Counted from the stretch's first letter, positions 2,545-63,756 are shown. The stretch is DNA of 64,000 nt from an uncultured Muribaculaceae bacterium (GCA_964598495.1 CAZRBY010000006.1:2624-66623), one strand, 5' to 3'. The notes: a model not told the origin generated them from the letters alone. Made by a program: numbers and translations.

Positions 2545-2545
2545 A

Positions 2546-6518: not shown

Positions 6519-6522
6519 AATC

Positions 6523-7773: not shown

Positions 7774-7782
7774 ATCCTCAGT

Positions 7783-8823: not shown

Positions 8824-8865
8824 TGTTGTACTATTGTTGTATTTATGATTATTGTTTAAAAATGA

Positions 8866-9693: not shown

Positions 9694-9695
9694 AA

Positions 9696-10082: not shown

Positions 10083-10115
10083 AAATAGTTTCTTTAAATA
10101 TCTGTTATTGTATTA

Positions 10116-18305: not shown

Positions 18306-18438
18306 AAATGTAATCTTCAACACAAAGGTAAATCAATAGATTTGAATAAAGGGCATTTTTAATCGATTTAAAAGGTTTACTAATCTAAGCATACTTGATA
18401 TATACCCGATACGATATAATTGAATTGCGGTGATTTAT

Positions 18439-18907: not shown

Positions 18908-18927
18908 CGAATCAAGTTTACAAAATT

Positions 18928-27848: not shown

Positions 27849-28606
27849 ATTTTAGGCATTCTCTGCCTAACTGCTTCGAAAAGCACTATGGCAGTGGCTA
27901 CGGAGACGTTGAGGGAACCGATTTGACCTAACATTGGAATCGCTGCCTTAACATTACAGAGCGAAAGTACCGAATCGGAAATACCCTTACCTTCAGAACC
28001 CATAACGATTACGGTCGGCTGAGTTAAATCCACATCGTAGATTGAACAGCCGGCCTTTTCTGTTGCACCTACAACATGGAAACCGGCATCAATCAACCAA
28101 TACAAAGGAATACGCAGGTTGGGGACCTTGCAAACAGGTACTCTGAGAAGAGCTCCTGATGATGTTTTGATCGCATCGGCATTAATGGCGGCTCCGCCCT
28201 TGGCAGGAAGTATCACTCCGCTTACCCCTGCACACTCCGCACTTCTGACTATTGCACCGAAATTACGCACATCGCTAACTCCGTCAAGCATTAAAAAAAT
28301 GGGAGCAGAAGAGACTGCAAGCGCTTTTTCAACGACATCCTCGAATGGCAGATAATCAATCTGCGACATATAGCCGATAACTCCCTGATGCGCACCGCGA
28401 TATAATTTGTTCATCTTTTCTCCGGGTACAAACTGAAAAGGAATCTCGTTTTGCTTTACCAGATCCAACAGTGCCCTGAACTTATCTCCTTCAAGACCCT
28501 GCTTAAATAGAATTTTTTCAAATTTTCTGCCTGTTTTAATTGCTTCATGCACGGGGTTAATACCGAACAGATAGGGTTGCTTCTTTTCTTCCATTGTGTA
28601 AATCAT
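27845..28606 (-). CDS. rlmB: 23S rRNA (guanosine-2'-O)-methyltransferase, SpoU/TrmH family (RlmB-like)
   Basis: It has the GINPVHEAI N-terminal substrate-binding domain and the SpoU motifs (GAIVRSAE, VMGSEGKGIS, SLNVSVA). Candidate start ATGs are 28624, 28606 (ATGA overlap with the ABC-F stop) and 28594. Confidence 0.8.
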   Translation of the reverse strand: MIYTMEEKKQPYLFGINPVHEAIKTGRKFEKILFKQGLEGDKFRALLDLVKQNEIPFQFVPGEKMNKLYRGAHQGVIGYMSQIDYLPFEDVVEKALAVSSAPIFLMLDGVSDVRNFGAIVRSAECAGVSGVILPAKGGAAINADAIKTSSGALLRVPVCKVPNLRIPLYWLIDAGFHVVGATEKAGCSIYDVDLTQPTVIVMGSEGKGISDSVLSLCNVKAAIPMLGQIGSLNVSVATAIVLFEAVRQRMPKI

Positions 28607-30525
28607 ATTGTGAGGGATGCCCATTCATCCATTTTTGTCTCAAGATTTAATTTGAGATAATGATACTTGTTTGTGAGTTCCACTATATCGTCTTCCGGAG
28701 AGGGTGATGCAAGGATTTTTTCCACAGCAGATATCTCTTCCTCCAGAGATGATATTTCATCTTCCAGCCGTTGTTGGCGATTTTTTATTCTACGTTCCTC
28801 CCTCGAGAGGTATTTCTGTGCCTCATAAGTGGATATCTTTTCCTTCTTTGGCTCGGGTGCAGCCTGAGAAGAGGGGGCCTGCTTGATTTCTATATCCCTG
28901 AGCGAACTTATCTTTTTGCGGTAGAGAAAATCATCCACTCCTCCGAGGTGTTCCTTTACCTGCCCGTCAGCAAACTCATAAATCTTCTCCACCAGCCCAT
29001 CAAGAAAGTCTCTATCATGTGAAACTATAATAAGAGTGCCGTCATATTTCTGCAGCGCCTGTTTTAGTACATCCTTTGAACGAAGATCCATATGGTTGGT
29101 AGGCTCGTCAAGCGCAAGCAGATTGTAGGGGTGCAATATGAGCTTTGCCATGGCCAGTCTTGAACGTTCACCGCCACTGAGCACTGACACCTTTTTATCT
29201 ATATCGTCTCCTCTGAAGAGAAAAGCGCCAAGTATGTCCCTCAGCCTGGTCCTAATATCTCCCACTGCGATCTTCTCCAGAGTACCGTACACGGTATCTT
29301 TTTTGTCCAATAAATCCTCCTGATTTTGCGCAAAGTAGCCTATCTTCACATTATACCCAACCTGCGCCTCACCTTCAAAAGGCTCAAGCCGGCCGGTAAG
29401 CAGGCGCATTACGGTGGTCTTACCCTCGCCGTTACGCCCTACGAAGGCCACCTTCTCCCCTCTTCTGATTGTGATATTGGCTCCATGCAGCACAATTTTC
29501 TTCTTGGGCTTTGAGTAGCCGATGGTTGCATCCTTGAGGGAAAACACCAAATCTCCGGAGCGTGGCGCAGAGGGAAATCTGACGGTAATTGTGCTCAAAT
29601 CCTCCTCATCTATCTCTATACGCTCGAGTTTTTCCAACTGTTTGATTCTGGATTGCACCTGATTGCTCTTTGTAGGCTTGTAGCGAAATTTCTCTATAAA
29701 TTCCTCGCTCTTTTCAATAAGGCGCTGCTGGTTGTCGTAGGCGGCGCGCTGCTGGGCAATTCTCTCCTTTCGCAACTCCACAAATTGGGAGTAAGGCACT
29801 TTATAATCGTAAATTTTGCCCAGCATCACCTCTACAGTACGGTTGGTGCAGTTGTCGAGGAATCTGCGGTCGTGTGATATTAGAACTAAAGCACCTGAAA
29901 AGTTCTTGAGGTACTCCTCTAACCACTGAATGGATTCGATATCGAGGTGGTTTGTCGGTTCATCCAATAGCAATATATCGGGGTTACGCAGGAGAATTTT
30001 AGCCAATTCTATGCGCATGTTCCAGCCGTGGCTTAATGTGTGTGTCATTCTGTCGAGTTCATCTTTGCGGAAACCCAGTCCGAGAAGGGTTTTCTCTGCC
30101 TGCACATGTGGGGATTCAAGGGAGTAAATCCTGAGTCTATCGCTGGTTTCATTTAATTCGACTATCAGTTTGTGGTACTCTTTCGACTCATAGTCAGTGC
30201 GATTTGCGAGCTCATGTGAAATTTGATCCAGACGCGTATTAAGCTCTTTGAGCTCCGCAAATGCAGTCATAGTCTCGTCAATGACGCTTTTATCGCGGGC
30301 ATGCTTCATTATCTGAGGAAGATAACCAACTTTCCGATCAGAGGGCATCGAAACCTTGCCCGATGAGGGCGACTGAAGGCCCATGATGAGTTTAAGAATG
30401 GTGGATTTGCCTGCTCCGTTTTTGCCGACGAGACCTACTTTCTCTTTGTCGCTTATATGAAAATTGATAGTGTCCAGAAGAGTGAATCCCCCGAATGAGA
30501 CAGTAAGATCACTGATCGATATCAC
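28603..30525 (-). CDS. ABC-F family ATPase (two ABC domains, no TM; translation-associated type)
   Basis: 640 aa with two Walker A motifs (GKNGAGKST, GRNGEGKTT), two LSGG signatures and a C-terminal coiled-coil tail. GTG start overlapping the tatC stop (GTGA). Confidence 0.88.
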   Translation of the reverse strand: MISISDLTVSFGGFTLLDTINFHISDKEKVGLVGKNGAGKSTILKLIMGLQSPSSGKVSMPSDRKVGYLPQIMKHARDKSVIDETMTAFAELKELNTRLDQISHELANRTDYESKEYHKLIVELNETSDRLRIYSLESPHVQAEKTLLGLGFRKDELDRMTHTLSHGWNMRIELAKILLRNPDILLLDEPTNHLDIESIQWLEEYLKNFSGALVLISHDRRFLDNCTNRTVEVMLGKIYDYKVPYSQFVELRKERIAQQRAAYDNQQRLIEKSEEFIEKFRYKPTKSNQVQSRIKQLEKLERIEIDEEDLSTITVRFPSAPRSGDLVFSLKDATIGYSKPKKKIVLHGANITIRRGEKVAFVGRNGEGKTTVMRLLTGRLEPFEGEAQVGYNVKIGYFAQNQEDLLDKKDTVYGTLEKIAVGDIRTRLRDILGAFLFRGDDIDKKVSVLSGGERSRLAMAKLILHPYNLLALDEPTNHMDLRSKDVLKQALQKYDGTLIIVSHDRDFLDGLVEKIYEFADGQVKEHLGGVDDFLYRKKISSLRDIEIKQAPSSQAAPEPKKEKISTYEAQKYLSREERRIKNRQQRLEDEISSLEEEISAVEKILASPSPEDDIVELTNKYHYLKLNLETKMDEWASLTI

Positions 30526-31343
30526 GCTTCACCTCCCGAGGCATCAGCTGCAATTTGATCCTCTTCTGATTTTCCGGACCTGCAAACCAGAATACTAACC
30601 TCATAGAGACAGTAGAGTGGGATTGCCACAAAGAAAAGTGTCACTGCATCTCCGGAGGGGGTGATCAGTGCCGCAACGATGAGAAGTATCACGATAGCGT
30701 GTTTGCGGTACTTCTTCAGAAACTCTTTTGTAATGATTCCAAATCTTGAAAGTACCGCTGCAAGAGCCGGCATTTCGAAAACAATCCCCATAATGAGAAT
30801 CAACGAAACAAACATCCCGATATAGGAGTTGAGCGATATCTGGTTGGGGACATCCGGTGAAACCTGATATGTGCCGAGAAATCTCACAGTCAGCGGAAAA
30901 ACCAGCAGATAGCCTACGGCAATCCCAACATAAAAAAGAATACCCGCAAATCCAAATGCACGCCTTACAACCCTTTTTTCATTGTCGTAAAGCGCGGGGC
31001 GTACAAAGGTCCATATTTGGTAAAAGATAAAGGGCATCGCTACAATCAATGCGACATAAAGAGATACCCTGATATGGGTAAAAAATTGAGCCGCCATCTC
31101 GATATTGATCAGCTCAATCGAAAACTCACCTATCGGTCCCGAACCAAAAAGAGCGAGCATGTAATTTAACAGCCGGTAAAGACAAAACTCAGATGTAAGT
31201 GGCGCAAATATGATGTTACCGAAAATCGTCTCCTTAAAAAAGAAGGCGACGATCATCAGCACCGCGAGCACTGCAACAGAGCGAAAAAGTACTTTCCGCA
31301 ACTCGTCGAGATGCTCCCAAAAGGACATATTGCTGCTTCCCAT
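30522..31343 (-). CDS. tatC: twin-arginine translocase subunit TatC
   Basis: 273 aa with the FWEHLDELRK N-terminal motif and 6 hydrophobic spans. An alternative ATG is at 31328. Confidence 0.9.
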   Translation of the reverse strand: MGSSNMSFWEHLDELRKVLFRSVAVLAVLMIVAFFFKETIFGNIIFAPLTSEFCLYRLLNYMLALFGSGPIGEFSIELINIEMAAQFFTHIRVSLYVALIVAMPFIFYQIWTFVRPALYDNEKRVVRRAFGFAGILFYVGIAVGYLLVFPLTVRFLGTYQVSPDVPNQISLNSYIGMFVSLILIMGIVFEMPALAAVLSRFGIITKEFLKKYRKHAIVILLIVAALITPSGDAVTLFFVAIPLYCLYEVSILVCRSGKSEEDQIAADASGGEA

Positions 31344-35785: not shown

Positions 35786-35834
35786 ACTACATACTACATA
35801 CTACATACTACATACTACATACTACATACTACAT
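35786..35834. repeat. (ACTACAT)x7 perfect heptanucleotide microsatellite
   Basis: Counted directly; seven perfect units. It ends 2 nt from the recQ stop codon (35837-35839). The plus strand is G-free from about 35779 to 35878. Confidence 0.97.
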
Positions 35835-35836
35835 AA

Positions 35837-42809: not shown

Positions 42810-42813
42810 TTAT

Positions 42814-42840
42814 ACTACATACTACATACTACATACTACT
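42814..42840. repeat. (ACTACAT)x3.9 heptanucleotide microsatellite overlapping the asd 3' end
   Basis: Counted directly. The asd stop (TAG, 42822-42824) and its last five codons (V-V-C-S-M) are encoded by the repeat. Confidence 0.95.
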
Positions 42841-51533: not shown

Positions 51534-54500
51534 ATGAAAACACTGAAGAAAATATTATTCGCACTGACTGTGGCCTTGGTTGTGGCCGGGTGCAGGGAAG
51601 ATTCGGGGAGCAATAAGATCACCGGAAATGTGATATTCCTCTCTGTAGTGAAGGATGAAATAGCCACAAGGAGTAGCATTGACGTGGATGACTCCAAGAT
51701 AATGACTTTAGATATCTTTCTTTATAATAATCTGGGGAGACTCTTCGAATCATACAGTTTTTCCAACGGTGAAGTGATCTCAATTGATCTCCCCGTCGGA
51801 CAGAGTTATATGGTATATGCGTTGGCCAATGTCGGCGGATTCACTCCCCCCGTTTCGGAGAGCGAAATGAGAGAGGTTTCAATCGGATGGCCGGGTCTTG
51901 AGGGGATAACTTCGGGTGGCTTTCCAATGGCCCACACAGGAACCTTGACTGTTGCCAATGGCAACAATAGTTATACTATGGAATTTGTACGTCTTGTTGC
52001 AAGATACGACCTTTTGATTGACCGCTGCAACCTGGAAGGAAGTTTTGAGGTAACCGGAGTCAGGCTTCGAAACTCAGCCTACGATGTATTTCCATTTTCT
52101 ATAAGGGCTGCTACTGCGACCCTTGATGGGGATATCGCCAAAACATCAGATCTGCAACTACTTAATACGGGATCAGCAGTTTCCTTTTATATGTATGAAA
52201 ATCTTCAGGGAAATCTTTTGCCGGACAATAGGGACCCTTGGGCTAAAATTCCCGACAACATCCCTGCGGCAAAACATCTCTGCACATTTATCGAAATCGA
52301 GGGTAAATATATCGGAGGTGGTGTTTCTGCAGGACTTAATGCGGAGAAAATGACCTTCAGAATCTATCTCGGGTCTGACAATACCTCTTCATTTGATATT
52401 ACGCGAAACACAATTCAGACACTAACTTTCCTACCTTCGGATAATTCCATTTCCACAGAGTCGTGGAAGGTAGATCCGGGAATTGTGGAGGATAACAGAA
52501 GCATTGGCTGGGACCCACTTGTTCTAAATCTTTTCTCAATGGGGCATGATACGGCAAGCCTTGTGCTCTCTCCTGCCGGCTTACCTATAAGACTGACAGG
52601 CAGCGAGGAGTTTTTAAACGGACACCTGAGTTATTCCCGTCAGGGAGAGAGGGTAATTATTTTCAGCACCTCAAATATTACGGCACCTACAAGTGCCACT
52701 CTGACCGCAGGCACGCTGGACCTTAAAAAAAGTAGCATACTGCAAATCAATGTGGTACCATCACTATTCATTACAGATATGATTGTTGAACCATGCGATA
52801 CATCACTTTTCTATGGAAATAGCATGCAACTTAGCGTAACGGCAATTTGGTCCGACGGTTCTACAAGTGATATTACCGGAGCATGCTCTTGGAGCAACAA
52901 TAAGCCTGATGCAGCCAGCCTCTCCTCGTCTGCCGTCATGACAAACATCTACAAAGGAAGTATGGATTCAGTAAATGTTGTTGTCACTGCCAGTTACAAA
53001 GGAAAAAGCAGTTCGGCTAACATCGTATGTTATCGCAATGGCTATACACGCTACAATTATGAACTCAACCTCAACCCTTCATCTGCGTCAGTGAATGTCG
53101 GTTCCTCGTTCCAAATCACAGCTATTCTGACCACTACGATATTTGTCAACGGAGAGGTAATTGACTCCTCAACTTCCGACGTAACCCATTCTGCCCAGTG
53201 GTCGAGCATCCATCCCGATAAGGCAATAGTTTCCGGTGGTGAGGTAACTGCCTTGGCTACCGGCATTGCAGCAATAATAGCGGTTCATAGCGGAGCCGCA
53301 AATTACACACTTGTGACAATAACACCGCAAACCTCTCCAACCATCACATCGTTGACTATCTCGCCCACCTCAGCCACTATCTCTGCTAATGGAAGCAAAT
53401 CATTTCTCGCAACTGCCACATATTCGGACGGAACAACAAATGATGTTACATCGCTCTGCTCCTGGAGCAGTTCCGACACCGATGCAGCAACTATAAGCAA
53501 CGGTACGGCAACGGGATGCAACACCTCTTCTTCCGTTAAGACGACCTCCATTACAGCTACATTCTCCGGAATGAGTGCTACGGCCAGCCTCTCGGTAGAA
53601 GGAGTGACAAAGAGCCCAATGGCACTCTCAATATATGCATCTCCTTCAACAATTGAATGGAACGGAACATGCCTGCTCTCCGCCGGTGTTATTTGGAGCG
53701 ACGATTCGGTAACTAATGAAACCGATGTCAGCTACATCATCACCTCAGGAGAGGAATATGTATACAACTATCAGGTGGAAGAGGGAATTCTAAGAGGCAA
53801 CAACAGCACATCCACTGCCCGAAGTGTAACTATAAGAGGAACATTCTCATACGGAGGAACGGTTTTGACGGATCACACAAGTGTTACAATCAATGGAAAA
53901 GAAGTTGTTACGGCATCGGATATCGTGTTATATATGAATAGGTATACCGTCGCTCAAGGTGACAGCAATTGTATTCTTTCGGCTATGGTAACCTATAGTG
54001 ATGGCAGTACCGAAACATTTACCTCATCCGGAGTCACCTATTCACTCGAAGGAGAAAATGTATCCTATGCAAATCTCATTGGCAACACAATCGAAGCATC
54101 AAATAGTAGTGACACATACAAACCTGTCACTGTCAGAGTCACCTATTCATACGGCGGAGTCACGGTTACGGATTCGCGAATTCTAAATGTCAGACCGAAA
54201 TATCCTGTCAGTGTGAACATCTCTCCATCTGACAACAACTTCACTTCCCCATCCGGAGTGACACTCAAAGCAGGAGAATCGATTTCATTTACAGCCGTAG
54301 CCACTTACAGTGAAGAAAGCACATCAGACTGTACCTCATCTGCCTTATGGACAATCACCATATTACACTCCGATGGCGGCACAAGGGTAATCAACGGTAA
54401 CAGCGTCTCCTACGGCGAACTATATGACGAACAAGAATACCCCATTACAGGTGTTACCGTAACAGCCTCATACACAACTGACGACGGCCTGCAGAGCACT

Positions 54501-54542
54501 ACCGCCACCGGTACGCTCTCCGGATTGATAAGATTGCAATAG
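51534..54542 (+). CDS. large surface lipoprotein: fimbrillin-like (Mfa/FimB/DUF4906-type) N-terminal region plus six Big_2-like Ig repeats
   Basis: 1002 aa with a lipobox (VVAGC, Cys20). The N-terminal 330 aa carry fimbrillin-family hallmarks (LDIFLYN, VRLVARYDL, FYMYENLQG, CTFIEIEGKY). Residues 415-1000 or so (nt 52776-54539) hold six modules of about 90 aa with the recurring pattern A(T/V)xYSDGSTxDVTxxxxWSS...A.I, as in bacterial Ig-like group 2 domains. Confidence 0.7.
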   Translation: MKTLKKILFALTVALVVAGCREDSGSNKITGNVIFLSVVKDEIATRSSIDVDDSKIMTLDIFLYNNLGRLFESYSFSNGEVISIDLPVGQSYMVYALANVGGFTPPVSESEMREVSIGWPGLEGITSGGFPMAHTGTLTVANGNNSYTMEFVRLVARYDLLIDRCNLEGSFEVTGVRLRNSAYDVFPFSIRAATATLDGDIAKTSDLQLLNTGSAVSFYMYENLQGNLLPDNRDPWAKIPDNIPAAKHLCTFIEIEGKYIGGGVSAGLNAEKMTFRIYLGSDNTSSFDITRNTIQTLTFLPSDNSISTESWKVDPGIVEDNRSIGWDPLVLNLFSMGHDTASLVLSPAGLPIRLTGSEEFLNGHLSYSRQGERVIIFSTSNITAPTSATLTAGTLDLKKSSILQINVVPSLFITDMIVEPCDTSLFYGNSMQLSVTAIWSDGSTSDITGACSWSNNKPDAASLSSSAVMTNIYKGSMDSVNVVVTASYKGKSSSANIVCYRNGYTRYNYELNLNPSSASVNVGSSFQITAILTTTIFVNGEVIDSSTSDVTHSAQWSSIHPDKAIVSGGEVTALATGIAAIIAVHSGAANYTLVTITPQTSPTITSLTISPTSATISANGSKSFLATATYSDGTTNDVTSLCSWSSSDTDAATISNGTATGCNTSSSVKTTSITATFSGMSATASLSVEGVTKSPMALSIYASPSTIEWNGTCLLSAGVIWSDDSVTNETDVSYIITSGEEYVYNYQVEEGILRGNNSTSTARSVTIRGTFSYGGTVLTDHTSVTINGKEVVTASDIVLYMNRYTVAQGDSNCILSAMVTYSDGSTETFTSSGVTYSLEGENVSYANLIGNTIEASNSSDTYKPVTVRVTYSYGGVTVTDSRILNVRPKYPVSVNISPSDNNFTSPSGVTLKAGESISFTAVATYSEESTSDCTSSALWTITILHSDGGTRVINGNSVSYGELYDEQEYPITGVTVTASYTTDDGLQSTTATGTLSGLIRLQ

Positions 54543-54546
54543 ATAA

Positions 54547-55137
54547 CTATTTGTTCAATATTGAGTTAAACTCTTCTATTGACAAAAAGACCGGTTGATA
54601 TTCAATGCCTCTGTTAACAAGATTGCGAACAAAAGCGCGCAAATGATTTTCCGATCCCTGCAAAAGCGGATTGTAAGTGGCGAGAATATCTTCATTATCC
54701 GTCTCTTTCATCAATTGTTTTAAATCGCGGATATCCAACTCTTCAATGTAAGCACCTATTTTTAAGGCTTCAATTATGGTTGTACCTTGTGCTGTCAACT
54801 TATCGTACAATTCCTGCAACTCCTCGTTATGAAATTTGCCATCTTCGTCAAATGAAGGGTCCTCGATTTCATACCGGCTCATCAACTCGATCACCAATTT
54901 TTGATGAACCGTCTCACTTTTTGCAATATTTCCGAAAATTGGGATATTGTATTGATTAGCAAAAAAACCATATACATCGTGAGCCAGCTTCTCTTCTTCA
55001 CGCATTAACAGGATTCCTTCCCTTTCGGAAGGCGTGAGTATAGTTGTATCAATATTTTGGGTACATCCGATAAAAGAATTGATTATCAGGATCATGGCCA
55101 CACCCATTCTTAATACGATATTGTTATTTGTTTGCAT
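54547..55137 (-). CDS. DUF2202 (ferritin-like) domain lipoprotein
   Basis: 196 aa with a lipobox-like FIGC. LMREEEKLAHDVYGFF...AKSETVHQ...GSENHLRAF matches the duplicated ferritin-like helices I associate with DUF2202. Confidence 0.6.
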   Translation of the reverse strand: MQTNNNIVLRMGVAMILIINSFIGCTQNIDTTILTPSEREGILLMREEEKLAHDVYGFFANQYNIPIFGNIAKSETVHQKLVIELMSRYEIEDPSFDEDGKFHNEELQELYDKLTAQGTTIIEALKIGAYIEELDIRDLKQLMKETDNEDILATYNPLLQGSENHLRAFVRNLVNRGIEYQPVFLSIEEFNSILNK

Positions 55138-55298: not shown

Positions 55299-55994
55299 AT
55301 GAAAAAATTACTTTTTGCTTTATTATTAGCATTTATTTGTGTTCAAGGACATGCACAATTCTACATGGGTGGCACCTTTGGGTTTACTTATAGTAACCTA
55401 TCCGGAGTTGGCGATTTATCCGGTTATGATGATGATTATTATTATGGATTAGGTGATGGGTCGGACTATGAGGACTATGAGTCTCATGCTCAGAAAGGTT
55501 TTTCATTCAAATTTCTTCCTGAAATCGGATATCATTTGTCACTCAGTACAGCTGTAGGAATAAATTTCGGTTATATCAAAGGCTATGCTGCGCTCGGCTC
55601 AATGGATTTGGCAGATTACAAGGCCATGTTAAGTATGGTTATAGGTACAGCATCAGACACTCAATCTGAGAGTGGTAATATCAGTGCAATACGCGTAGCA
55701 CCCTATCTCCGCTACACATTGGTAAGAAAGGGAGGATTCGAAATTTTTACCGATGCTGTCGCAGGTTTTAATTACATTATGGATAAATCATCCAGTACAA
55801 ATTATACATCTTTGGAAATCTGTCTAAGACCGGGTGTTTCTTTTGCCATCAGCGACAGTGTAAAACTATTAGCCAAGATGGGTTCTTTGGGATTCCAATA
55901 TTTGAGTGGCGCAGAGGGTAGCATCAAGCTTACTCGATTCGGTTTGGATCTCGATGGAAACAACATGATGCTGGGAGCAATATACTATTTCTAA
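55299..55994 (+). CDS. small outer-membrane beta-barrel protein (OmpA-like/OmpW-like barrel family)
   Basis: 231 aa with a signal peptide ending HAQ, alternating amphipathic beta strands and a C-terminal aromatic residue (GAIYYF). Confidence 0.65.
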   Translation: MKKLLFALLLAFICVQGHAQFYMGGTFGFTYSNLSGVGDLSGYDDDYYYGLGDGSDYEDYESHAQKGFSFKFLPEIGYHLSLSTAVGINFGYIKGYAALGSMDLADYKAMLSMVIGTASDTQSESGNISAIRVAPYLRYTLVRKGGFEIFTDAVAGFNYIMDKSSSTNYTSLEICLRPGVSFAISDSVKLLAKMGSLGFQYLSGAEGSIKLTRFGLDLDGNNMMLGAIYYF

Positions 55995-56025: not shown

Positions 56026-56063
56026 GACTTTCCCCATCAATCGATGGGGAAAGTCGGTTTTCT
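56026..56063 (+). terminator. rho-independent terminator
   Basis: GACTTTCCCCAT-caatcg-ATGGGGAAAGTC followed by GGTTTTCT. Confidence 0.75.
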
Positions 56064-56091: not shown

Positions 56092-56099
56092 TAGTTTTG
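56092..56099 (+). promoter_or_regulatory. candidate -7 promoter box for the six-gene LolA-like/ABC operon
   Basis: TAGTTTTG (TAnnTTTG), 55 nt upstream of the ATG at 56155 and downstream of the terminator at 56026-56063. Confidence 0.35.
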
Positions 56100-56154
56100 G
56101 AAAACTACCAACCAGGGGTGTTTATTGAAAGTCCATTCAGATTGAAGAGATTAT

Positions 56155-56910
56155 ATGATTTTAAGAATTATTCGAATAATAACGTTAATACTTTTATCTA
56201 CACAGTCCGTTTCGGCTCAGTCGATGAGTGCTTACCAGATTGTTGAAAAAGCCCACAATAACCGCTTTTTCAGCAACTTTCAAGCCCAAGCAGACATGAC
56301 TATTTACAGACCGACATGGAAGCGTTCCATAGGAATTAAAACGTGGCTAAAATCGAGAGAAATGGCTATGCTATTAATTGTCTCTCCGCCAAAAGAGAAA
56401 GGAGAGTCATATCTGAAAATTGGCAATAATATTTGGAACTGGCAACCTGTAATAGAGAGGACAGTGAAAATAGCGTTGGCTGCTACCGGCACCCCATGGC
56501 ATGGTAGCGATTTTACAATTGATGATATGTTGAAAAGTAGTTCTTTTCTGTATGACTGTAACCACGAATTAGTAGGTAAAGAGGTTATTGATGGAGATCT
56601 ATGTTACAAATTGATATTAACACCACATTCAGAAAGCACTATACTCTGGAATAAGGTGGTTGTTTGGATTAGCGACACCAGTTTTGTGGAACGTAAAATT
56701 GAGTACTACGATGAAGATGACATTTTGATTAGAACATATACCTCCGACAATATACAAATGATTCAAGGACATTTTGTTCCGCTTCATTTTGAGGTTATAC
56801 CTGCCGACAAAAAGGGATATAAAACTGTACTTTCCATATCGGATTGTGCTTCTGACCCTTCAATTAAAGAAAGTTTTTTCTCGTTGCAAAATATGAAACG
56901 TCTTAATTGA
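56155..56910 (+). CDS. periplasmic LolA_like (outer membrane lipoprotein-sorting protein family, PF17131-type) protein
   Basis: 251 aa with an SPase I-type signal peptide (SVSAQS, no lipobox Cys). The blocks LLIVSPPKEKGESYLKIGNNIWNWQP, WHGSDFTIDDM and CYKLILTP match the LolA_like family pattern as I remember it. Confidence 0.75.
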   Translation: MILRIIRIITLILLSTQSVSAQSMSAYQIVEKAHNNRFFSNFQAQADMTIYRPTWKRSIGIKTWLKSREMAMLLIVSPPKEKGESYLKIGNNIWNWQPVIERTVKIALAATGTPWHGSDFTIDDMLKSSSFLYDCNHELVGKEVIDGDLCYKLILTPHSESTILWNKVVVWISDTSFVERKIEYYDEDDILIRTYTSDNIQMIQGHFVPLHFEVIPADKKGYKTVLSISDCASDPSIKESFFSLQNMKRLN

Positions 56911-56919
56911 TAGTTTTCC

Positions 56920-58164
56920 ATGATCAAATTGGCTTGGCTCAACCTGCAAAGGAATCCCAATCGTGCTCTGTTAATTATATCCTCCGTATTTATTGCCACC
57001 TTTTTTTCCATCCTTTTCGGCTCCATAAAAAATGGTGTGCTTCACTCTTCTGCCGATAGCATTCTGAAGCTATTAGGAGGACATATTGAGATAAGGGCAA
57101 AAAGTTATGCTGAAACCCGCTCTATAGACGATATAATGGAGATAGATTCGGCAACTTTGGACTCAATCTCCGCACTTCCCTATGTGAAGAGTGTTTTGCC
57201 AACTCTTCAATCGAATGTACTGATATCTCATTCGGCCACCAACTCTGTCCGAGCCGTGGCTTTAGTTGGCATAGATCCGGAATCTGAAAAGGACCGTATA
57301 GTAACAGTCTCAGAAATGGTTGAAGGAGAGTGGTTCTCCAAATTCGATAAAGGAGTAATCATAGGTACAAATATGAGAGAACAGCTGGGTTTAGGCGTCG
57401 GTGATACCCTTGTGGTTATGGGCAATGGCTATCATGGTACAAATGCCGTAGGATTGTTTCCGATACAAGGTATTGCGAGGCTACCGTTTGCCACATTTGA
57501 CAAAAGCACCATCCTCATGACATTATCTGCTGCACAAGAACTTTTCCAGGCTAATGATTGTTATAGTGAAATCTATATAATGGCGGAAAGATTGGACAAA
57601 GTAGACCTGATAGAATCCAAAATTCAAAGCATGTTTTCTTATGAAGAATATGAGATAAGGGATTGGAAGTTGCTAATAGAGGACTACTTGTTCTTTTTTA
57701 GACTTACGGATAGCATAGGATTCATAATTATGTTTTTTCTCTATGTCCTCGTCGGTTCTAATATTTTAGGCTCGGTTATATTAATGGCTAAAGAGAGAAA
57801 ACTAGAATTTTCGGTATTGGTATCTATTGGGATGTCCCGCAGTAAGCTAAGTAAAAGCCTTTTTTATGAACTTATCATGGTTACTTTTATAGGTGTGGTC
57901 ATTGCCATTCTCATAAGTCTTCCCATTATATATTACTTTAGTATTCACACTATACCACTCTATGGCGAACAAATTGAAACATTGAAAAGGTATTCTGTCT
58001 GTCCGGATATATATTTGTCCTTGGACTTAACTCTTTATATAAAACAATTTTTGATTATCATAGGTCTATGTTTGGCAGTTATCATTTATCCGATTGCCGT
58101 TATATATAAATTAAAAGTAGATAAAGGATTGAATAAAAGAGATGCAGATGAAGATTGTCTATAA
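56920..58164 (+). CDS. ABC transporter permease, FtsX/MacB/LolC-type (TM1, periplasmic domain, 3 TM)
   Basis: 414 aa with the MIKLAWLNLQRNPNRALLIISSVFIA N-terminus, a soluble insert of about 230 aa and a C-terminal FtsX-like three-helix bundle. Confidence 0.85.
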   Translation: MIKLAWLNLQRNPNRALLIISSVFIATFFSILFGSIKNGVLHSSADSILKLLGGHIEIRAKSYAETRSIDDIMEIDSATLDSISALPYVKSVLPTLQSNVLISHSATNSVRAVALVGIDPESEKDRIVTVSEMVEGEWFSKFDKGVIIGTNMREQLGLGVGDTLVVMGNGYHGTNAVGLFPIQGIARLPFATFDKSTILMTLSAAQELFQANDCYSEIYIMAERLDKVDLIESKIQSMFSYEEYEIRDWKLLIEDYLFFFRLTDSIGFIIMFFLYVLVGSNILGSVILMAKERKLEFSVLVSIGMSRSKLSKSLFYELIMVTFIGVVIAILISLPIIYYFSIHTIPLYGEQIETLKRYSVCPDIYLSLDLTLYIKQFLIIIGLCLAVIIYPIAVIYKLKVDKGLNKRDADEDCL

Positions 58165-58165
58165 A

Positions 58166-59365
58166 ATGGCTTTTAGAAATCTTTTTAGGAGAAAAGGTCG
58201 CAGCACTTTATTAATAACCATTGTTGCTACAGCTGTATTTGCAGCTTCGTTTGTTGTTGCTCTTGGCAACGGTTTTACGGATGGTATTTTTAGAGAATAT
58301 ATCAATATTCAGACCTCTCATTTGCAAATTCATGTGAACAATCTTTCAGAGATAAATGACGTTTCCAAATTTATGGATAAGCGGATGATTCAGGAGGCCC
58401 TGAATGCTGTCGATGAAGTGGAGTCTTCATCTTATCGTTTGAAGACCAATTCACTTGTCTCTACTGCACAAACTAGCGTTGGACTCACATTGATCGGAGT
58501 GGATAGAGGTGATGAAATAAAGGTCTCGTCCATTTACAGCACCATTGATAATTGTGAGGGAACCTTTTTTGAAAGTGATGTGGTAAGACCAATCGTTATA
58601 AGTAAACGTTCAGCTGAGAAATTGAATGTAGGGGTCAAGTCGAGAATCATAGTTTCCTTTCAAGACTCGTCAGGAGAGATTCAGAAGGTCCTGTTCAGGG
58701 TGGGAGGATTGTTTCAAACCAACACTAAAAGTTTCGACAACATGACGGCTTTCGTGCAAAATTCTGACCTTATGCCCTATTTAAATCTTCCCGATGGAGC
58801 TGTTCATGAAGTTGCCATTATTGTTAACGATTTGAAGGAGTGTGATAATATTAAGCAAAAGATATCTCAACTATTACCTGATCACGATGTTAAGAAATGG
58901 AATGAAGTAGTCCCTATTATAGATTTATTAAGCGCTTGGCATGGACTAGCCACTTTTCTCTCTTTAGCTATTTTTTTCATCACCTTGGGATTCAGTTTAA
59001 CCAATTTTATCCTAATGTCGGTTTTAGAGAGAAAGGGTGAGTTCAGAATGCTGAATAAAGTTGGAATGTGTGGCCGGGATATTGGAGCCATGATTGTAAT
59101 AGAGACACTTTTTACCACACTGATTGCTGCCCTGACCGGACTCTTAATATCGACGATTGCCGTATTGATCTTTTCCAAATCGGGCATTGATATAAATTTT
59201 TTATTTGAGAATGAATCCGGGTATGGTTTGGGGACAGTTATTTGCCCGGTAGTTACACATATTTATCCTGTAATCAATAAAATGGATTTTGTTAATATAT
59301 TTGCATTAGTAACGGTCGTCAGTATTATTGCAACAATATCGCCTATTAAAAAGGTCATGAAGTAA
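58166..59365 (+). CDS. ABC transporter permease, FtsX/MacB/LolE-type (second, divergent copy)
   Basis: The ATG at 58166 lies 1 nt after the previous stop and gives MAFRNLFRRKGRSTLLITIVATAVF. It has the same topology as the first permease. Alternative upstream ATGs are at 58142 and 58148. Confidence 0.85.
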   Translation: MAFRNLFRRKGRSTLLITIVATAVFAASFVVALGNGFTDGIFREYINIQTSHLQIHVNNLSEINDVSKFMDKRMIQEALNAVDEVESSSYRLKTNSLVSTAQTSVGLTLIGVDRGDEIKVSSIYSTIDNCEGTFFESDVVRPIVISKRSAEKLNVGVKSRIIVSFQDSSGEIQKVLFRVGGLFQTNTKSFDNMTAFVQNSDLMPYLNLPDGAVHEVAIIVNDLKECDNIKQKISQLLPDHDVKKWNEVVPIIDLLSAWHGLATFLSLAIFFITLGFSLTNFILMSVLERKGEFRMLNKVGMCGRDIGAMIVIETLFTTLIAALTGLLISTIAVLIFSKSGIDINFLFENESGYGLGTVICPVVTHIYPVINKMDFVNIFALVTVVSIIATISPIKKVMK

Positions 59366-59379
59366 ACTAAAGTGTAGTT

Positions 59380-60096
59380 ATGAATGAGTTGACAGAAAAC
59401 AGTAAATACATAATCGTAAGAACAGATAACCTGACCAAGTTGTTTCTAGACGGCAAATCGGAGATAATGGCAACAGATAGTGTTAACTTAACTATCACGA
59501 GTGGAGAGTTTACTGCAGTGGTGGGTCCTTCAGGCTCCGGAAAAACGACCCTTCTTAACCTGATAGGAGGGCTTACAACTCCCACGTCCGGAAAAGTGTT
59601 CGTAAATGGAAAGGATATAAATCAGCTTACAGATAAAGAGCTTGTTAACTTTCGTTTGCATAACATAGGATTTGTTTTCCAATTCCTCAATCTAATTCCG
59701 GTTTTGACGGTAGAAGAGAATATAGCCTTTATAATGGAATTGCAGGGCATCTACAAAGAGCAACGAGTAGCACGAACAACCGAACTTCTAAAATTGATCG
59801 GTCTGAAAGATCGCGCCAACTCTCGGCCATCGACCCTCTCCGGCGGTCAAAAGCAAAGGGTTGCAGTAGCTCGTGCTTTAGCCTCCAAGCCTCTATTCAT
59901 ACTTGCAGATGAACCCACTGCTAATCTGGACACTGAAGCTGCCGAAACATTGCTTGATACTATGCTTCTTCTTAACGAGAAAGAGAAGATAACCTTTCTT
60001 TTTTCAACTCACGATCCACGTGTAATGAATAAGGCCAGACGACTTATAACACTTGAAGATGGAAGGATCACAAAGGATGAAACTTATGCTCGTTAG
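59380..60096 (+). CDS. ABC transporter ATP-binding protein (LolD/MacB-NBD-like)
   Basis: 238 aa with Walker A GPSGSGKTT, Q-loop, signature LSGGQKQRVAVARAL and Walker B ILADEPTANLD. Confidence 0.92.
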   Translation: MNELTENSKYIIVRTDNLTKLFLDGKSEIMATDSVNLTITSGEFTAVVGPSGSGKTTLLNLIGGLTTPTSGKVFVNGKDINQLTDKELVNFRLHNIGFVFQFLNLIPVLTVEENIAFIMELQGIYKEQRVARTTELLKLIGLKDRANSRPSTLSGGQKQRVAVARALASKPLFILADEPTANLDTEAAETLLDTMLLLNEKEKITFLFSTHDPRVMNKARRLITLEDGRITKDETYAR

Positions 60097-61234
60097 GTTT
60101 ATCATAGGATTTTCTTTATTTTGTCTCAGTTGCTGTAGTGCATACGCTCAAATCAGCCTGTCTGGCTACATACACAACCATTCTCTAGTTGGAAAGACTA
60201 GACCTGACCCTTTTGATGAAACTTTATGGCAAAATATGACTTCCCAAAAATTAAATTTTAATTGGAGCATCAATAATAGTTTTGACCTTTACATAAGTAG
60301 CAGAGCCAATTTTTCAATTGGAAATAGCGATATCCTTAAACTGATAAAAGGAACTTCAACTGACGAAAATAACCTGATGAAACTCTCCTATTCATTGGTA
60401 GACAAAGAGGATAAATGGTTGAGTTTTGCCTTGGACCGATTGGCATTGCGGTGGGCAACCGATCAGGTTGAGATTACTCTTGGACGTCAGAGGATTAACT
60501 GGGGAAATACAATATTGTGGAATCCTAATGATGTATTTGACTCATATCCTTTTTTCAACTTCATGTATACCGAGAGAATGGGCTGTGATGCCGTTCGTGT
60601 CGCTTTTTATCACGACGAAGTTGCGACAAGCGAAATTGCGGTCTCAGCTGACAGAGAGGGCTCCCCTACTGCTGCCATATTACATCGAAATTTATACCGT
60701 AAATTTGATTATCAATTACTGGGAGGAGTTTATAGAGGCCAATACCTCTTTGCAGGAGGAGGCTTTACTACTGAGTTGAACAAGTTTAATATCAGATTTG
60801 AAGGCTCATATTTTCACGATTTCCATAAAGTCAGTGAGAAGCAGAACGTCGTTCAGGTTTCCATGGGTATGGATAAAGTTTTTTCAAATAATTTTATCTT
60901 GCAAACTGAAGTTTTATATACAAATAAACCATATGACATATCTGACCTTACGGTTTATCATGTGCATAATAAGCCCACTTTGAGAGAATTGACTACCTCA
61001 CGCTGGAGCTTTGCCGGACAAATCTACTATCCTTTTTCCAACTTACTTTCACTAAGCTCTTTAATAGCTTATTTCATTGATCAAAAAGCAATTTATGCTA
61101 CTGTTGAATTGAAGTATCAATTATTTAAGAATTTTGAAACATCGGTGATGGTTCATGCATTTGATTATACGTTGGGCGAATCATATTCAATGGATGGTAT
61201 TGCAGGCACACTACATCTCAAATATTATTTTTGA
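60077..61234 (+). CDS. outer-membrane beta-barrel of unknown function (DUF1302/alginate-export-like features)
   Basis: The ATG at 60077 overlaps the ATPase gene by 20 nt and gives the signal peptide MKLMLVRFIIGFSLFCLSCCSAYAQ. The GRQRINWGNTILWNPNDVF block resembles conserved motifs of DUF1302/AlgE-type barrels. It ends in the OMP-type aromatic tail LHLKYYF. Confidence 0.6.
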   Translation: MKLMLVRFIIGFSLFCLSCCSAYAQISLSGYIHNHSLVGKTRPDPFDETLWQNMTSQKLNFNWSINNSFDLYISSRANFSIGNSDILKLIKGTSTDENNLMKLSYSLVDKEDKWLSFALDRLALRWATDQVEITLGRQRINWGNTILWNPNDVFDSYPFFNFMYTERMGCDAVRVAFYHDEVATSEIAVSADREGSPTAAILHRNLYRKFDYQLLGGVYRGQYLFAGGGFTTELNKFNIRFEGSYFHDFHKVSEKQNVVQVSMGMDKVFSNNFILQTEVLYTNKPYDISDLTVYHVHNKPTLRELTTSRWSFAGQIYYPFSNLLSLSSLIAYFIDQKAIYATVELKYQLFKNFETSVMVHAFDYTLGESYSMDGIAGTLHLKYYF

Positions 61235-61266
61235 GGTGTGAGATTATCATATTAATTTATATATAG

Positions 61267-62532
61267 ATGAAACGCTCTTTTTTAACATTATTCGTTTTCA
61301 CTTTATCTTTTTTCGGTTGTGAAAAAGAGCCGGTATTTGTGGAAATTGAATATGTTAAATTCAACCATCAACTCTTCGAAGAGAATGTAAAGATGGAAGA
61401 GCTTATCAAGAAGGCTTCCAGAGAGTTTGGGGCCACTCCTAGAGAAATGTTGTTGGAAGCTGGTTATAACGAGGAACAAACACAACAAGTGCTCGAAAAA
61501 CTCAACCTCTATGTTGCGCTTTCAAAGGATCACACCGTACATGGCATTGCATATAACACTAAAGATCCCCTTGGTGAATCCGTTGTGGCATCCGGACTCC
61601 TATATTGTCCTCAAAATAGGTTGCCCAAAGGTGTAATCTTCGTATATCCTCTTTTAAAAACCAAAGGGAATAGCGGTACAGATGTTCGATTCAGTTTGGA
61701 GGCCCTGTTGGCTATATCCGGTGATTATATATGTATGATACCGGATGGGATTGGACAGGGTATCAGTTCAAATCAACCTATCTCTATAATTCAACATGAA
61801 AATTTAGCTGAAACAGGTACGGATTTTTATCTGGCAGCCAGAGAGTTTATTTATAATCGCTATCACTACAAACTACCTAAAAATATTTATCTACTTGGCT
61901 ATTCCCTTGGTGGTTCAGCCATCTGGTCAATGGCCCGATATCTCACAATCCACAAGGAGCTTGGGATAGGTGTGAAAGATATCTTTGTAGGAGGAGGTCC
62001 TTACTACCCGGACCTCTTTATGAAGAACATATTTGAGAGTCGTAATTCTAACTATGCTTCCATACCCTTCATACTCTGGTCTTTGAACTACTATGAGAAT
62101 TTAAATATAGATTTTACAAAGATTTTTAAGGGCAAACTTTTGGATGAATTCCCCTCACTATGTGATGGTCATAAAGGACTCAAAGATGTTACGTCTTATA
62201 TCGGAACCGATCTTAACGACTATTTAGATAAGGATTTTTTACAAAATGAAGAGAATCAATACCGACAATTGATTATGGATGCATTGGAAAAAAATTCAAT
62301 ACCAAATGATTGGCTACCTGAAGTCAAGGTTCATTTATACAACTGTTATAACGACCTATATGTTCCCTCAATTTGTGGAGATAAACTATACGAATATCTA
62401 AGGGAGGTAAATGCCAATGTTGAGTATATTCATGAGGATATAACACACGAAAAGATGATTATTAGGATGATGATAGATTTTTACAAGCACCTTTATCCGG
62501 ATAATCCCTATAATTTGCCGAAGCTTTATTGA
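61267..62532 (+). CDS. alpha/beta-hydrolase lipoprotein (lipase/esterase-like)
   Basis: 421 aa with a lipobox (SFFGC) and the nucleophile elbow GYSLGG. Candidate Asp (YNCYNDLYVP) and His (EDITHEK) occur in the canonical Ser-Asp-His order. Confidence 0.7.
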   Translation: MKRSFLTLFVFTLSFFGCEKEPVFVEIEYVKFNHQLFEENVKMEELIKKASREFGATPREMLLEAGYNEEQTQQVLEKLNLYVALSKDHTVHGIAYNTKDPLGESVVASGLLYCPQNRLPKGVIFVYPLLKTKGNSGTDVRFSLEALLAISGDYICMIPDGIGQGISSNQPISIIQHENLAETGTDFYLAAREFIYNRYHYKLPKNIYLLGYSLGGSAIWSMARYLTIHKELGIGVKDIFVGGGPYYPDLFMKNIFESRNSNYASIPFILWSLNYYENLNIDFTKIFKGKLLDEFPSLCDGHKGLKDVTSYIGTDLNDYLDKDFLQNEENQYRQLIMDALEKNSIPNDWLPEVKVHLYNCYNDLYVPSICGDKLYEYLREVNANVEYIHEDITHEKMIIRMMIDFYKHLYPDNPYNLPKLY

Positions 62533-63050
62533 CAGCATTCCAGAAAGTAGAATAGTCTGGGCATCGACTATGATTAGCTAAAATATAATTAATCTTCAAA
62601 TGGTAGGGCTTTGTTCTTACCGGGTGCCACACCGTAGCGGATGCATCATTAGCAGAATTTACAATGCTCTGTCCACCCTCGTTTATCTTTTTCTCTGAAG
62701 ATTCATACTTTTCCTGAGCGTTCTTGAGCGCCTTGCCCGGTTCTTCGTTATACAATACAAAATCTGCCATACGCTCCGCCATTCTGAGTGCCGCATCTAC
62801 TATATTAGCATGGTTGCGGCCTGTTCAACCTTTATCCATGCTGACCTTAGATGATTGAGAATCGCCTTTATATTGCGGTCAGAGGCATCTTCCCTCTCCA
62901 TGTCATCCATCGCTTCCATATAGTCTGGGAATGCTGCGAGAGAGATCTTTCAGTCCACTATCACATCGGTTTAATCGGGATAGTGCAGAATAAAGTCCAG
63001 GCACATCCGTCAACCGCAGCAGGGATTATTTCTTTTATTATAGGTATCAT
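62462..63050 (-). pseudogene. possible decayed gene: three consecutive minus-strand ORF fragments in different frames
   Basis: My translation gives MIPIIKEIIPAAVDGCAWTLFCTIPIKPM* from the ATG at 63050. A second frame gives ...KISLAAFPDYMEAMDDMEREDASDRNIKAILNHLRSAWIKVEQAATMLI*. The third is the 106-aa track ORF (62462..62782), whose in-frame upstream extension NHANIVDAALR abuts the second fragment. Its 3' end overlaps the lipase gene by 70 nt. I recognise no family. Confidence 0.3.
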
Positions 63051-63192: not shown

Positions 63193-63756
63193 ATGGTTAG
63201 ATTGTTTTCAATAATAGTTATTATTTTCTGCACTACAATAATTGCAAGAGCACAACATGTTGCCGTTTCAGCCAATTTGGCGGATATAGCCAATTTCGGG
63301 ACTTTGAGCGGTGAGATTTCTGTCGCTGCCTCACGCCATATTTCCCTAAATGCCGGAGTCAGGTACAATCCATGGCAGTATGGTTCAGAGGAAAAAGGCT
63401 TTGTTCAGAATAGGAAACGCGAGGCTTCACTCGGGGCGAGGTACTGGCCATGGAATATCTTCTCATCATGGTGGTTCGGAATGCGCACACAAGTACGCGA
63501 GTATAATTGCGGAGGGCTTTTCGGGCGGCAAATCACCGAAGAAGGGGTTGCAATAGGTGCAGAGGCAGCTTTCGGATACTCCTATATGATCAATAGTCGG
63601 TTTAATATTGAGTTTGGAGCAGGCATATGGGGTGGGCACAGATGGTATACGCGTTACGATTGTCCACGTTGCGGAACCATACTTTCGGAAGATAATGCTC
63701 ACGGATGGTTCGTTAATCCTGGCGAACTGATAGTTTCACTGGTTTACATTTTTTGA
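63193..63756 (+). CDS. DUF3575-family outer-membrane beta-barrel protein
   Basis: 187 aa with a signal peptide ending ARAQ. VAVSANLADIANFGTLSGEISVAASRHISLNAGVRYNPW is the characteristic DUF3575 opening, and the protein ends in an aromatic tail (LVYIF). Confidence 0.75.
   Translation: MVRLFSIIVIIFCTTIIARAQHVAVSANLADIANFGTLSGEISVAASRHISLNAGVRYNPWQYGSEEKGFVQNRKREASLGARYWPWNIFSSWWFGMRTQVREYNCGGLFGRQITEEGVAIGAEAAFGYSYMINSRFNIEFGAGIWGGHRWYTRYDCPRCGTILSEDNAHGWFVNPGELIVSLVYIF

Follow-up and report, generated by a model that had tools for sequence, protein, structure and literature searches.

An operon at positions 56155–62532 of a 64,000-nucleotide (nt) stretch of DNA from an uncultured Muribaculaceae bacterium (GCA_964598495.1 CAZRBY010000006.1:2624-66623; hereafter the window, with coordinates counted from its first letter) was found to join known modules in an uncharacterized combination, i.e., a Lol-like ATP-binding cassette (ABC) transporter, a LolA-fold carrier and an outer-membrane barrel of an unannotated family that is widespread in uncultured Bacteroidota. 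The interpretation that we favor, with confidence that is about evenly balanced, is that operons of this family encode a type VII ABC exporter that is Lol-like, accessory and usually under the control of TetR, and in which a hydrophobic, non-protein cargo would be handed over from carrier to barrel. The envelope-spanning logic proposed in an initial annotation of the window proved sound, as the genes are predicted to provide an inner-membrane type VII ABC pump, a soluble LolA-fold carrier and a dedicated barrel. Features of the locus are as follows.

55299–55994, + strand: predicted small outer-membrane beta-barrel protein (small OMP; 231 aa, signal peptide, C-terminal YF)
56026–56063, + strand: hairpin resembling an intrinsic terminator (13-bp perfect stem and 4-nt loop, followed by GGTTTTCT)
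56092–56099, + strand: TAnnTTTG match TAGTTTTG, 56 nt 5' of the first ATG
56155–56910, + strand: LolA-fold carrier (PF17131 LolA_like; 251 aa, type I signal peptide)
56920–58164, + strand: permease 1, LolC-like (MacB_PCD and FtsX; 414 aa)
58142–59365, or 58166–59365 from an ATG, + strand: permease 2, LolE-like (FtsX; 407 aa or 399 aa)
59380–60096, + strand: ABC ATPase, LolD/DevA/FtsE-like, a separate subunit (238 aa)
60077 (ATG)–61234, + strand: outer-membrane barrel with about 18 strands in the predicted model (385 aa; an alternative TTG at 60053 is also open)
61267–62532, + strand: lipase/esterase-like alpha/beta-hydrolase lipoprotein (421 aa, lipobox FFGC)

The six operon open reading frames (ORFs) all lie on the + strand and, with the start codons used, are spaced by 9, 1, 14, -20 and 32 nt, in agreement with the tightly packed, co-directional block initially described.

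Conservation of the operon

When genomes were scanned by pattern, with each species represented once, the barrel was detected in at least 588 of the 185,579 genomes covered, and 80 distant loci among those listed, nearly all from metagenome-assembled genomes (MAGs) of Bacteroidota, were searched with the proteins of the window. Genes for the LolA_like carrier, permease 1, permease 2, the ATPase and the barrel occurred in that exact order at 58 of the 60 listed loci with enough upstream DNA, all from other Bacteroidota species with barrel identities of 27–35%. Chance adjacency of the genes, which the initial annotation had proposed to check by a survey of this kind, was therefore rejected. A TetR gene was noted immediately 5' of the operon at 37 of 56 listed loci, with PF00440 confirmed at those TetR loci that were annotated with Pfam (L005, L006, L007 and L008). 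On the other side of the core, a gene for a polytopic membrane methyltransferase of the PEMT/ICMT family lay directly 3' of the barrel gene and on the same strand at 36 of 74 listed loci (e.g., 11111–11887 of L019), where it may represent an alternative to the lipase as a "sixth gene". The hydrolase and the small OMP were found at none of the 80 listed distant loci. As judged from gene order, what is conserved is a core of five genes to which individual lineages have added others, these being TetR and the methyltransferase in some lineages and the small OMP and lipase in that of the window. Thus, five members of the six-gene unit initially proposed are conserved together while the hydrolase belongs to the clade of the window. 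Members of the family were mainly from uncultured Bacteroidota of gut, sediment and digester.

The ABC transporter and the carrier

Pfam matches of permease 1 were to MacB_PCD (PF12704, 1.5e-13) and FtsX (PF02687, 6.5e-13), and that of permease 2 was to FtsX (PF02687, 2.4e-9), PF12704 being present as well in permease 2 orthologues at other loci. The two permeases were distantly related to each other (69 bits). LolF was among the nearest PDB sequences of both permeases, together with LolC for the first and LolE for the second, and both proteins scored higher on LolCE models than on FtsX models. Scores on the NCBIfam lolCE model (TIGR02212) were 100.6 bits for permease 1 and 71.8 bits for permease 2, neither of which reached the cutoff of 362.45. 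The ATPase matched PF00005 (ABC_tran, 3.4e-37), and its best NCBIfam model was LolD (TIGR02211) at 222 bits, compared with a cutoff of 307.75, while DevA and FtsE gave 205 and 190 bits, respectively. An FtsX domain, MacB_PCD and an ABC ATPase together are the marks of a type VII ABC transporter (MacB superfamily), and the heteromeric LolC/LolE-like permeases and LolD-like ATPase recognized initially were thereby borne out. No gene for an HlyD-family membrane-fusion protein or a TolC-family protein was found with Pfam in the window operon or, at the related loci annotated in this way (L001, L004–L009 and L090), in the 8–10 kb to either side, and the fixed order of the five genes leaves no slot for one.

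The carrier matched PF17131 over profile positions 4–184 of 184 with a score of 145.3 bits (E = 2e-42, cutoff 30), and the family, which is called TP_0789-like rather than LolA_like in newer Pfam, was the sole one reported for this protein; there was no match to canonical LolA. All four families expected in the initial annotation (PF17131, PF12704, PF02687 and PF00005) were thus recovered. Among PDB sequences, the carrier matched 3buu ("LolA superfamily protein NE2245", 2e-16) as well as 9tp6, 3bk5 and 4z48. The protein begins with a type I signal peptide and has no lipobox, and a lipobox was likewise absent from 63 of 65 orthologues, on which grounds the carrier is predicted to be soluble in the periplasm. 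These results agree with the LolA-like fold, signal peptide and missing lipobox first ascribed to the 251-aa protein. When homologues of the LolA_like protein were sought by a word-indexed search, only close relatives were recovered. "Outer membrane lipoprotein-sorting protein" is the usual database name of PF17131 proteins.

The outer-membrane barrel

An AlphaFold2 model of the barrel, built with 46 homologues, had a mean predicted local distance difference test (pLDDT) score of 88.9, a predicted template modeling (pTM) score of 0.83 and approximately 18 beta-strands by DSSP. Foldseek matched this model to generic 18-strand porins and channels (MOMP, chitoporin and Occ; 5ldv, 7vu2 and 5dl8, TM approximately 0.6) but to no specific functional neighbor. 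A C-terminal Phe was present in the window protein and in 85 of 88 relatives. The 393-aa outer-membrane barrel with C-terminal Phe of the initial annotation was therefore upheld, at 385 aa when counted from the ATG.

Sequence searches placed the barrel outside known families. No Pfam family was matched above threshold by the window protein, and the family profile had no match among PDB sequences. DUF1302 (PF06980) gave 14.2 bits against a cutoff of 23.2, and the match covered just profile positions 161–188 of 541, being confined to the GRQRINWG segment; weak PF06980 matches were also obtained for 16 of 46 family members (best, 6.4e-7). Because these members match weakly and the window protein falls below threshold, the barrel appears to represent an unannotated family that is a remote relative of DUF1302 rather than a member of it. 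Accordingly, the resemblance to DUF1302 that had been pointed out is real but is remote, sub-threshold and limited to one motif. The conserved signature of the family is GRQRIxWG...WNPxDxFN. Positions 136–174 contain 11 of the 17 invariant residues and, in the model, run from the last part of one strand through 31 residues that lack regular secondary structure into the beginning of the following strand. This stretch may form an internal loop of the barrel. An exhaustive hidden Markov model search, with sequences clustered at 50% identity, gave 4742 family clusters with E <= 1e-3 and 914 with E <= 1e-30; those sampled were small, MAG-derived and in every case named "hypothetical protein".

Additions in the clade of the window

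The lipobox of the hydrolase (LSFFGC) is followed by the acidic residues EKEP. In an alignment with 15 homologues, Ser213 (within the motif GYSLGG, which has the GxSxG pattern of a nucleophile elbow), Asp363 and His394 were invariant, the lipobox Cys was kept in 14 of 15 and acidic residues stood just after it in most. Such residues recall the surface-export signal of Bacteroidota lipoproteins. The hydrolase matched PDB 4ezi by sequence (E = 5.6e-14), and Foldseek comparison of its AlphaFold2 model (pLDDT 87) returned 4ezi, the secreted esterase LipA of Xanthomonas oryzae (3h2g-k, TM approximately 0.68) and CalA-like lipases (2veo/3guu). PF03583 (LIP) was not matched in the Pfam scan of the window protein and was matched by 7 of 15 homologues (best, 1.3e-6). 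These findings identify a predicted lipase/esterase-like alpha/beta-hydrolase lipoprotein and support the initial description, i.e., a lipoprotein with GYSLGG and Ser-Asp-His order.

An orthologue of the small OMP (46–66% identity) lay 5' of the operon at all four hydrolase-bearing loci (L002, L003, L004 and L090). The window protein itself had no match in Pfam or PDB, and its orthologues in L004 and L090 matched PF13505 (OMP_b-brl). The resulting order of seven genes, i.e., small OMP, five-gene core and hydrolase, was seen in the window, in two Cryptobacteroides-like contigs (L002/L003), in Prevotella sp. OH937_COT-195 (GCA_003932845.1; L004) and in L090. Two tandem paralogues of the hydrolase gene were noted in the sister lineage L002/L003 (8693–11254 of L002) compared with one in the window. 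Linkage of hydrolase to operon was evident at 46% hydrolase identity in L004 and still at 39% in L090, whereas a hydrolase of 28% identity in L091 was not linked to the operon. Among the loci compared, the hydrolase thus appears confined to the Bacteroidales clade of the window, where it is stably linked together with the small OMP. No TetR gene was found in the window operon or in the seven-gene loci L002/L003, L004 and L090. In L003, a metagenomic variant, the barrel gene is broken into two ORFs (7497–8653), which may reflect a pseudogene or faulty assembly.

The operon also differed from its surroundings in base composition. Thus, its GC content was 37.8%, the first 54 kb of the window having 44.7%, and GC at third codon positions (GC3) was 0.34–0.39 in the operon and 0.45–0.54 outside; the low-GC block begins at 54547, upstream of the operon. 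An effect of membrane-protein composition was rejected as the source of this bias because GC3 was low too and the soluble carrier and the hydrolase were also biased. The AT-rich, accessory character originally attributed to the block is supported by these values. The seven-gene module exceeded its flanks in AT content in the window and in L002, but in L090 it had the higher GC content, and these differing offsets fit a module that has moved between genomes.

Relation to characterized systems

No published account of this Bacteroidota operon was found in the searchable literature, in line with the initial statement that no characterized example of the architecture is known; the LolA-like operons mentioned in the lipocone paper are of another kind. 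The likeness to the Lol pathway and to DUF1302/DUF1329 pairs that had been noticed is real. In common with LolABCDE of Escherichia coli, the operon encodes heterodimeric FtsX/MacB_PCD permeases (the nearest solved structures of which are LolF, LolC and LolE), a separate ATPase and a soluble carrier of LolA fold that bears a type I signal peptide. Unlike that system, the carrier belongs to PF17131 rather than to canonical LolA, the acceptor is an integral barrel of approximately 18 strands instead of the lipoprotein LolB, scores are far below equivalog cutoffs, all parts are encoded in one operon that is usually TetR-headed, and distribution is patchy. The cargo, in contrast with that of Lol, is probably not a lipoprotein.

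The closest experimentally studied analogue of the operon is AmeABCD of Castellaniella defragrans, which consists of a DUF1302 barrel, a DUF1329 protein of the LolA superfamily, a BNR protein and an HAE3 RND pump, and deletion of which reduced monoterpene tolerance and increased accumulation of Nile Red (PMC6394551). Three of the four PDB entries matched by the window carrier, 4Z48, 3BK5 and 3BUU, are those named as solved structures of the LolA superfamily in the same report. The corresponding DUF1302, DUF1329, BNR and RND genes are cofit in several Proteobacteria (Pseudomonas, Shewanella and Kangiella; 10.1101/072470). At two loci of Pseudomonas putida, all four were specifically required for growth on Tween 20, DUF1302, DUF1329 and BNR but not the RND pump were required on butyl stearate, and none of the four was required on free fatty acids (10.1101/2020.07.04.188060). 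For these sets, then, there is genetic evidence of apolar-compound efflux or tolerance as well as of growth on fatty esters. DUF1302 barrels have been described as 18-strand, and a DUF1302–DUF1329 complex was predicted by AlphaFold-Multimer with an interface pTM of 0.84 (PMC13499233). The pairing of a barrel of about 18 strands with a LolA_like gene in the same operon, as seen at 58 of 60 loci, corresponds to this trait of the DUF1302 type.

Shared features thus include a barrel with a GRQRIxWG-type signature, indicative of a remote relationship to DUF1302, and a LolA-superfamily periplasmic partner together with an energized inner-membrane pump. The pumps themselves differ, however, being an ATP-driven type VII ABC transporter in the operon and a proton-driven HAE3 RND pump in AmeABCD, and neither RND (COG1033) pump nor BNR/Ycf48-like genes were found in the window operon or in annotated related loci. 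Differences were also evident in the carrier (PF17131 and 251 aa as opposed to approximately 450 aa for DUF1329 proteins of the AmeABCD type), in the barrel (approximately 385 aa and below the Pfam threshold as opposed to 541–605 aa for DUF1302) and in phylum, the operon being from Bacteroidota and the AmeABCD/DUF1302 sets from Proteobacteria.

The only published ABC-driven parallel that we found is BBJ23–BBJ29 of Borrelia, a computational prediction in which a MacB-like ABC transporter is combined with a LolA-like protein and a barrel of the Omp85 type (PMC13078400). Unlike the operon described here, this plasmid-borne set has a barrel that is Omp85/BamA-like, not porin-like or DUF1302-like, a permease that is predicted to be homodimeric and extra chaperone-like genes. 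With MacAB-TolC, the operon shares the type VII ABC fold (MacB_PCD and FtsX) and its principle of mechanotransmission, and the TetR regulation of its relatives resembles that of such efflux pumps; in contrast with MacAB-TolC, however, the ATPase is a separate polypeptide, the permeases are heterodimeric, and a soluble carrier and porin-like barrel replace the membrane-fusion protein and TolC-type duct. A further accessory, regulated operon of Bacteroidales is PG1175–PG1181 of Porphyromonas gingivalis, which includes genes for a TetR/AcrR regulator, for an "outer membrane lipoprotein-sorting protein", for hypothetical proteins and for ABC ATPases, and which, like paralogous loci of Prevotella intermedia, is induced 13- to 136-fold by iron depletion (PMC10434189). 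The pump in that case is of the MMPL/RND type and not composed of FtsX permeases.

Proposed mechanism and its alternatives

Type VII ABC transporters such as MacB and LolCDE act from the periplasmic side of the membrane and push substrates outward. On this basis, the direction of transport, the steps of hand-over and the chemistry of the cargo that we infer for the operon are as follows. ATP would drive movement of the periplasmic domains of a heterodimeric transporter (permease 1, permease 2 and ATPase), which would transfer cargo into the soluble LolA-fold carrier. The loaded carrier would then traverse the periplasm and dock on the barrel of approximately 18 strands encoded by the same operon, where the GRQRIxWG...WNPxDxFN segment may take the cargo and release it to the outer leaflet or medium. 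A soluble carrier as the link between membranes, with the dedicated barrel as exit, is most likely because annotated loci have no membrane-fusion or TolC gene that would indicate a continuous duct. In TetR-headed lineages, the default role under control of the TetR repressor would be inducible efflux or detoxification of a membrane-partitioning compound, a role that is preferred over constitutive envelope biogenesis because most relatives are TetR-headed. The cargo may be lipid-like or an ester, given that the products of the accessory sixth genes, a PEMT/ICMT methyltransferase at 36 of 74 loci and a LipA/CalA-like hydrolase in the window clade, would act on such substrates. In the lineage of the window, TetR is missing and the small OMP and lipase/esterase-like lipoprotein have been added, and because these two have joined the operon, the cargo in this clade is probably fatty-acyl, i.e., a free fatty acid or an acyl-ester substrate or product.

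Several points weigh against this proposal. The operon family is known from sequence and predicted structure alone. There is no TetR gene in the window operon, so that the argument for inducible efflux is borrowed from relatives, and the link between barrel and DUF1302 is weak, being sub-threshold for the window protein and based on one motif. Moreover, the closest solved relatives of the permeases are LolF, LolC and LolE, not MacB, which makes a lipoprotein cargo possible, and the lipoprotein gene co-conserved in the window clade would suit a protein cargo equally well as a lipid.

Envelope-lipid biogenesis, in which an endogenous lipid or lipidated product (e.g., a modified phospholipid, aminolipid or sulfonolipid) would be delivered to the outer membrane or vesicles in place of detoxifying efflux, is unlikely but deserves consideration, as a LolA-fold carrier and Lol-like permeases suit acyl chains, the PEMT/ICMT-family gene follows the barrel gene at almost half of the loci scored, PAP2 and acyltransferase genes adjoin some loci (L006 and L004), and "export of a cell wall component" was suggested by Price et al. 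for the DUF1302/DUF1329/BNR/RND genes (10.1101/072470). This interpretation is less easily reconciled with TetR-headed operons, which are more usual for inducible efflux, with a family that is mostly in small MAG clusters and far from universal, or with the lack of a biosynthetic gene linked consistently across the family. A more doubtful proposal is that of a dedicated lipoprotein route, independent of LolA and LolB, in which the ABC transporter would extract acylated lipoproteins (here the lipase-like one of the operon), the carrier would ferry them and the barrel would insert them or flip them to the surface. The hydrolase was found at none of the distant loci, no other lipoprotein gene was noticed to recur beside them, control by TetR and linkage to a methyltransferase are ill-suited to protein cargo, and the family appears to be missing from heavily sequenced model Bacteroidota with many surface lipoproteins, its clusters being small and MAG-only. 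In its favor are the LolF, LolC and LolE relationships of both permeases, LolD as best NCBIfam model for the ATPase, the lipoprotein nature of the hydrolase, including the conserved Cys and acidic residues, the persistence of its linkage down to 39% identity and the finding that surface lipoproteins of Flavobacterium johnsoniae are still surface-located after loss of all known LolA and LolB homologues (PMC11885536). If true, this route would provide a first molecular handle on the surface placement of lipoproteins in Bacteroidota.

Well-established examples of FtsX-domain ABC complexes that activate periplasmic hydrolases are FtsEX with EnvC, PcsB or RipC, and the window operon, with a hydrolase gene and an ATPase that scores 190 bits on FtsE, might by analogy encode a mechanotransducer in which ATP is used to activate a partner outside the cytoplasm, be it the hydrolase or a different enzyme, and no cargo is moved. 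This is very improbable given that the conserved core consists of a lipid-carrier fold and a barrel without the hydrolase, and that full MacB_PCD is found on the permeases, which score higher on LolCE than on FtsX models. The chance is similarly slim that the system takes up hydrophobic nutrients, i.e., that fatty acids freed by a surface lipase are admitted by the barrel and moved inward by the carrier. We know of no type VII ABC transporter that acts as an importer, the operon has neither a substrate-binding protein nor an importer-type permease, and the lipase is absent from most operons, although one is present in the window and the DUF1302/DUF1329 genes of P. putida were needed on fatty esters and not on free fatty acids (10.1101/2020.07.04.188060).

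That the operon is simply the housekeeping LolCDE–LolA system of the organism is barely credible, even though lolCE and LolD are the best-scoring curated models and no other Lol-type gene was found within the 64-kb window, a small part of the genome, in which an additional ABC ATPase (28606–30528) is unrelated. Scores were far under the equivalog cutoffs (100.6 and 71.8 vs 362.45; 222 vs 307.75), the carrier matched PF17131 and not canonical LolA, and the role of a LolB-type acceptor in the outer membrane falls to an integral barrel. Furthermore, the operon forms an AT-rich block with deviant GC3 in the window and is GC-richer than its flanks in L090, most relatives are TetR-headed, and the patchy distribution, with sampled clusters that were small and MAG-only, contrasts with the presence of LolA1 and LolB1 homologues in all Bacteroidota examined (PMC11885536). 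This evidence, while indirect, consistently indicates that the operon is not housekeeping LolCDE, and export of a hydrophobic, non-protein cargo is the interpretation retained.

Upstream signals and neighboring genes

The hairpin at 56026–56063 had a folding energy of -30 kcal/mol (z = -6.6), and none of 200 shuffled sequences was equally stable. The perfect stem and the folding energy agree with the clean terminator initially proposed here, and this terminator-like structure would close the transcription unit of the small OMP. TAnnTTTG is the -7 promoter consensus of Bacteroidota. The box TAGTTTTG noted initially is present at 56092–56099 and is consistent with a promoter in its position alone; it was rejected as stand-alone evidence since the motif is near chance frequency in the window (65 observed vs 49 expected), and it carries little weight by itself. 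A second TAnnTTTG match, TATTTTTG at 61226–61233, lies within the end of the barrel gene, 34 nt 5' of the hydrolase start, and may either serve the hydrolase as an internal promoter or have arisen by chance.

The module is flanked by genes for a DUF4906/Big_2 lipoprotein (1002 aa, 51534–54542) and a DUF3575 protein (63193–63756), the latter being followed by Mfa2/FimA-like fimbrial genes in L002, and these neighbors therefore place it inside or beside a fimbrial locus. Between the Big_2/DUF4906 gene and the small OMP gene is a DUF2202 (ferritin-like/rubrerythrin-like) gene (54547–55137, - strand) with a GC content of 37.6%, low like that of the operon block, which is missing from the otherwise collinear contig L002. 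Frameshifted rmuC remnants at 62594–63018 (- strand) had 58–62% identity to residues 219–426 of the RmuC of L002, which is intact at the corresponding position. A 106-aa ORF at 62462–62782 is probably spurious, as it overlaps both the rmuC remnant and the end of the hydrolase gene.

Other features of the window

A complete-looking set of genes for lysine fermentation was noted at 1065–10766 (- strand). This set consists of genes for two CoA-transferase subunits, the alpha and B12-binding beta subunits of D-lysine 5,6-aminomutase, a MutS domain V protein, lysine 2,3-aminomutase (radical SAM), a Zn-dehydrogenase-like protein and beta-keto acid cleavage enzyme. Tandem heptamer repeats that belong to one family and run in both orientations were present between genes at 4107–4230, 35786–35835 and 42812–42839 (approximately 17 copies of TAGTGTG/TAGTATG, 7 of ACTACAT and 4 of ATACTAC) and may be variable or regulatory tracts. 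A 600-nt intergenic region at 18300–18950, between a divergent queA-like gene and a gene at 18928, contains several ATTTACATTTGT boxes, each of which includes the TAnnTTTG motif, and has a 15-nt inverted repeat at both ends. Rfam and tRNA scans of the window gave no matches.

Implications

Two designs are known for the export of hydrophobic compounds by Gram-negative bacteria, one being the continuous duct formed by pump, adaptor and TolC and the other that of the Lol and Lpt pathways, which handle lipoproteins and lipopolysaccharide. The operon family would add a third, namely shuttle-type efflux by a Lol-type extractor, a LolA-fold carrier and a porin-like barrel in which neither adaptor nor TolC takes part, and would be the ATP-driven counterpart of the poorly understood DUF1302/DUF1329/RND systems of Proteobacteria. 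The barrel and its LolA-fold partner could thus be studied as a general outer-membrane exit module. With at least 588 species representatives and thousands of protein clusters, the family is widespread yet unstudied, and its habitats of gut, sediment and digester expose cells to bile acids, fatty acids and plant terpenoids. The search for cargo is narrowed by the clade-specific lipase and by the methyltransferase of other clades, both of which hint at acyl or ester chemistry.

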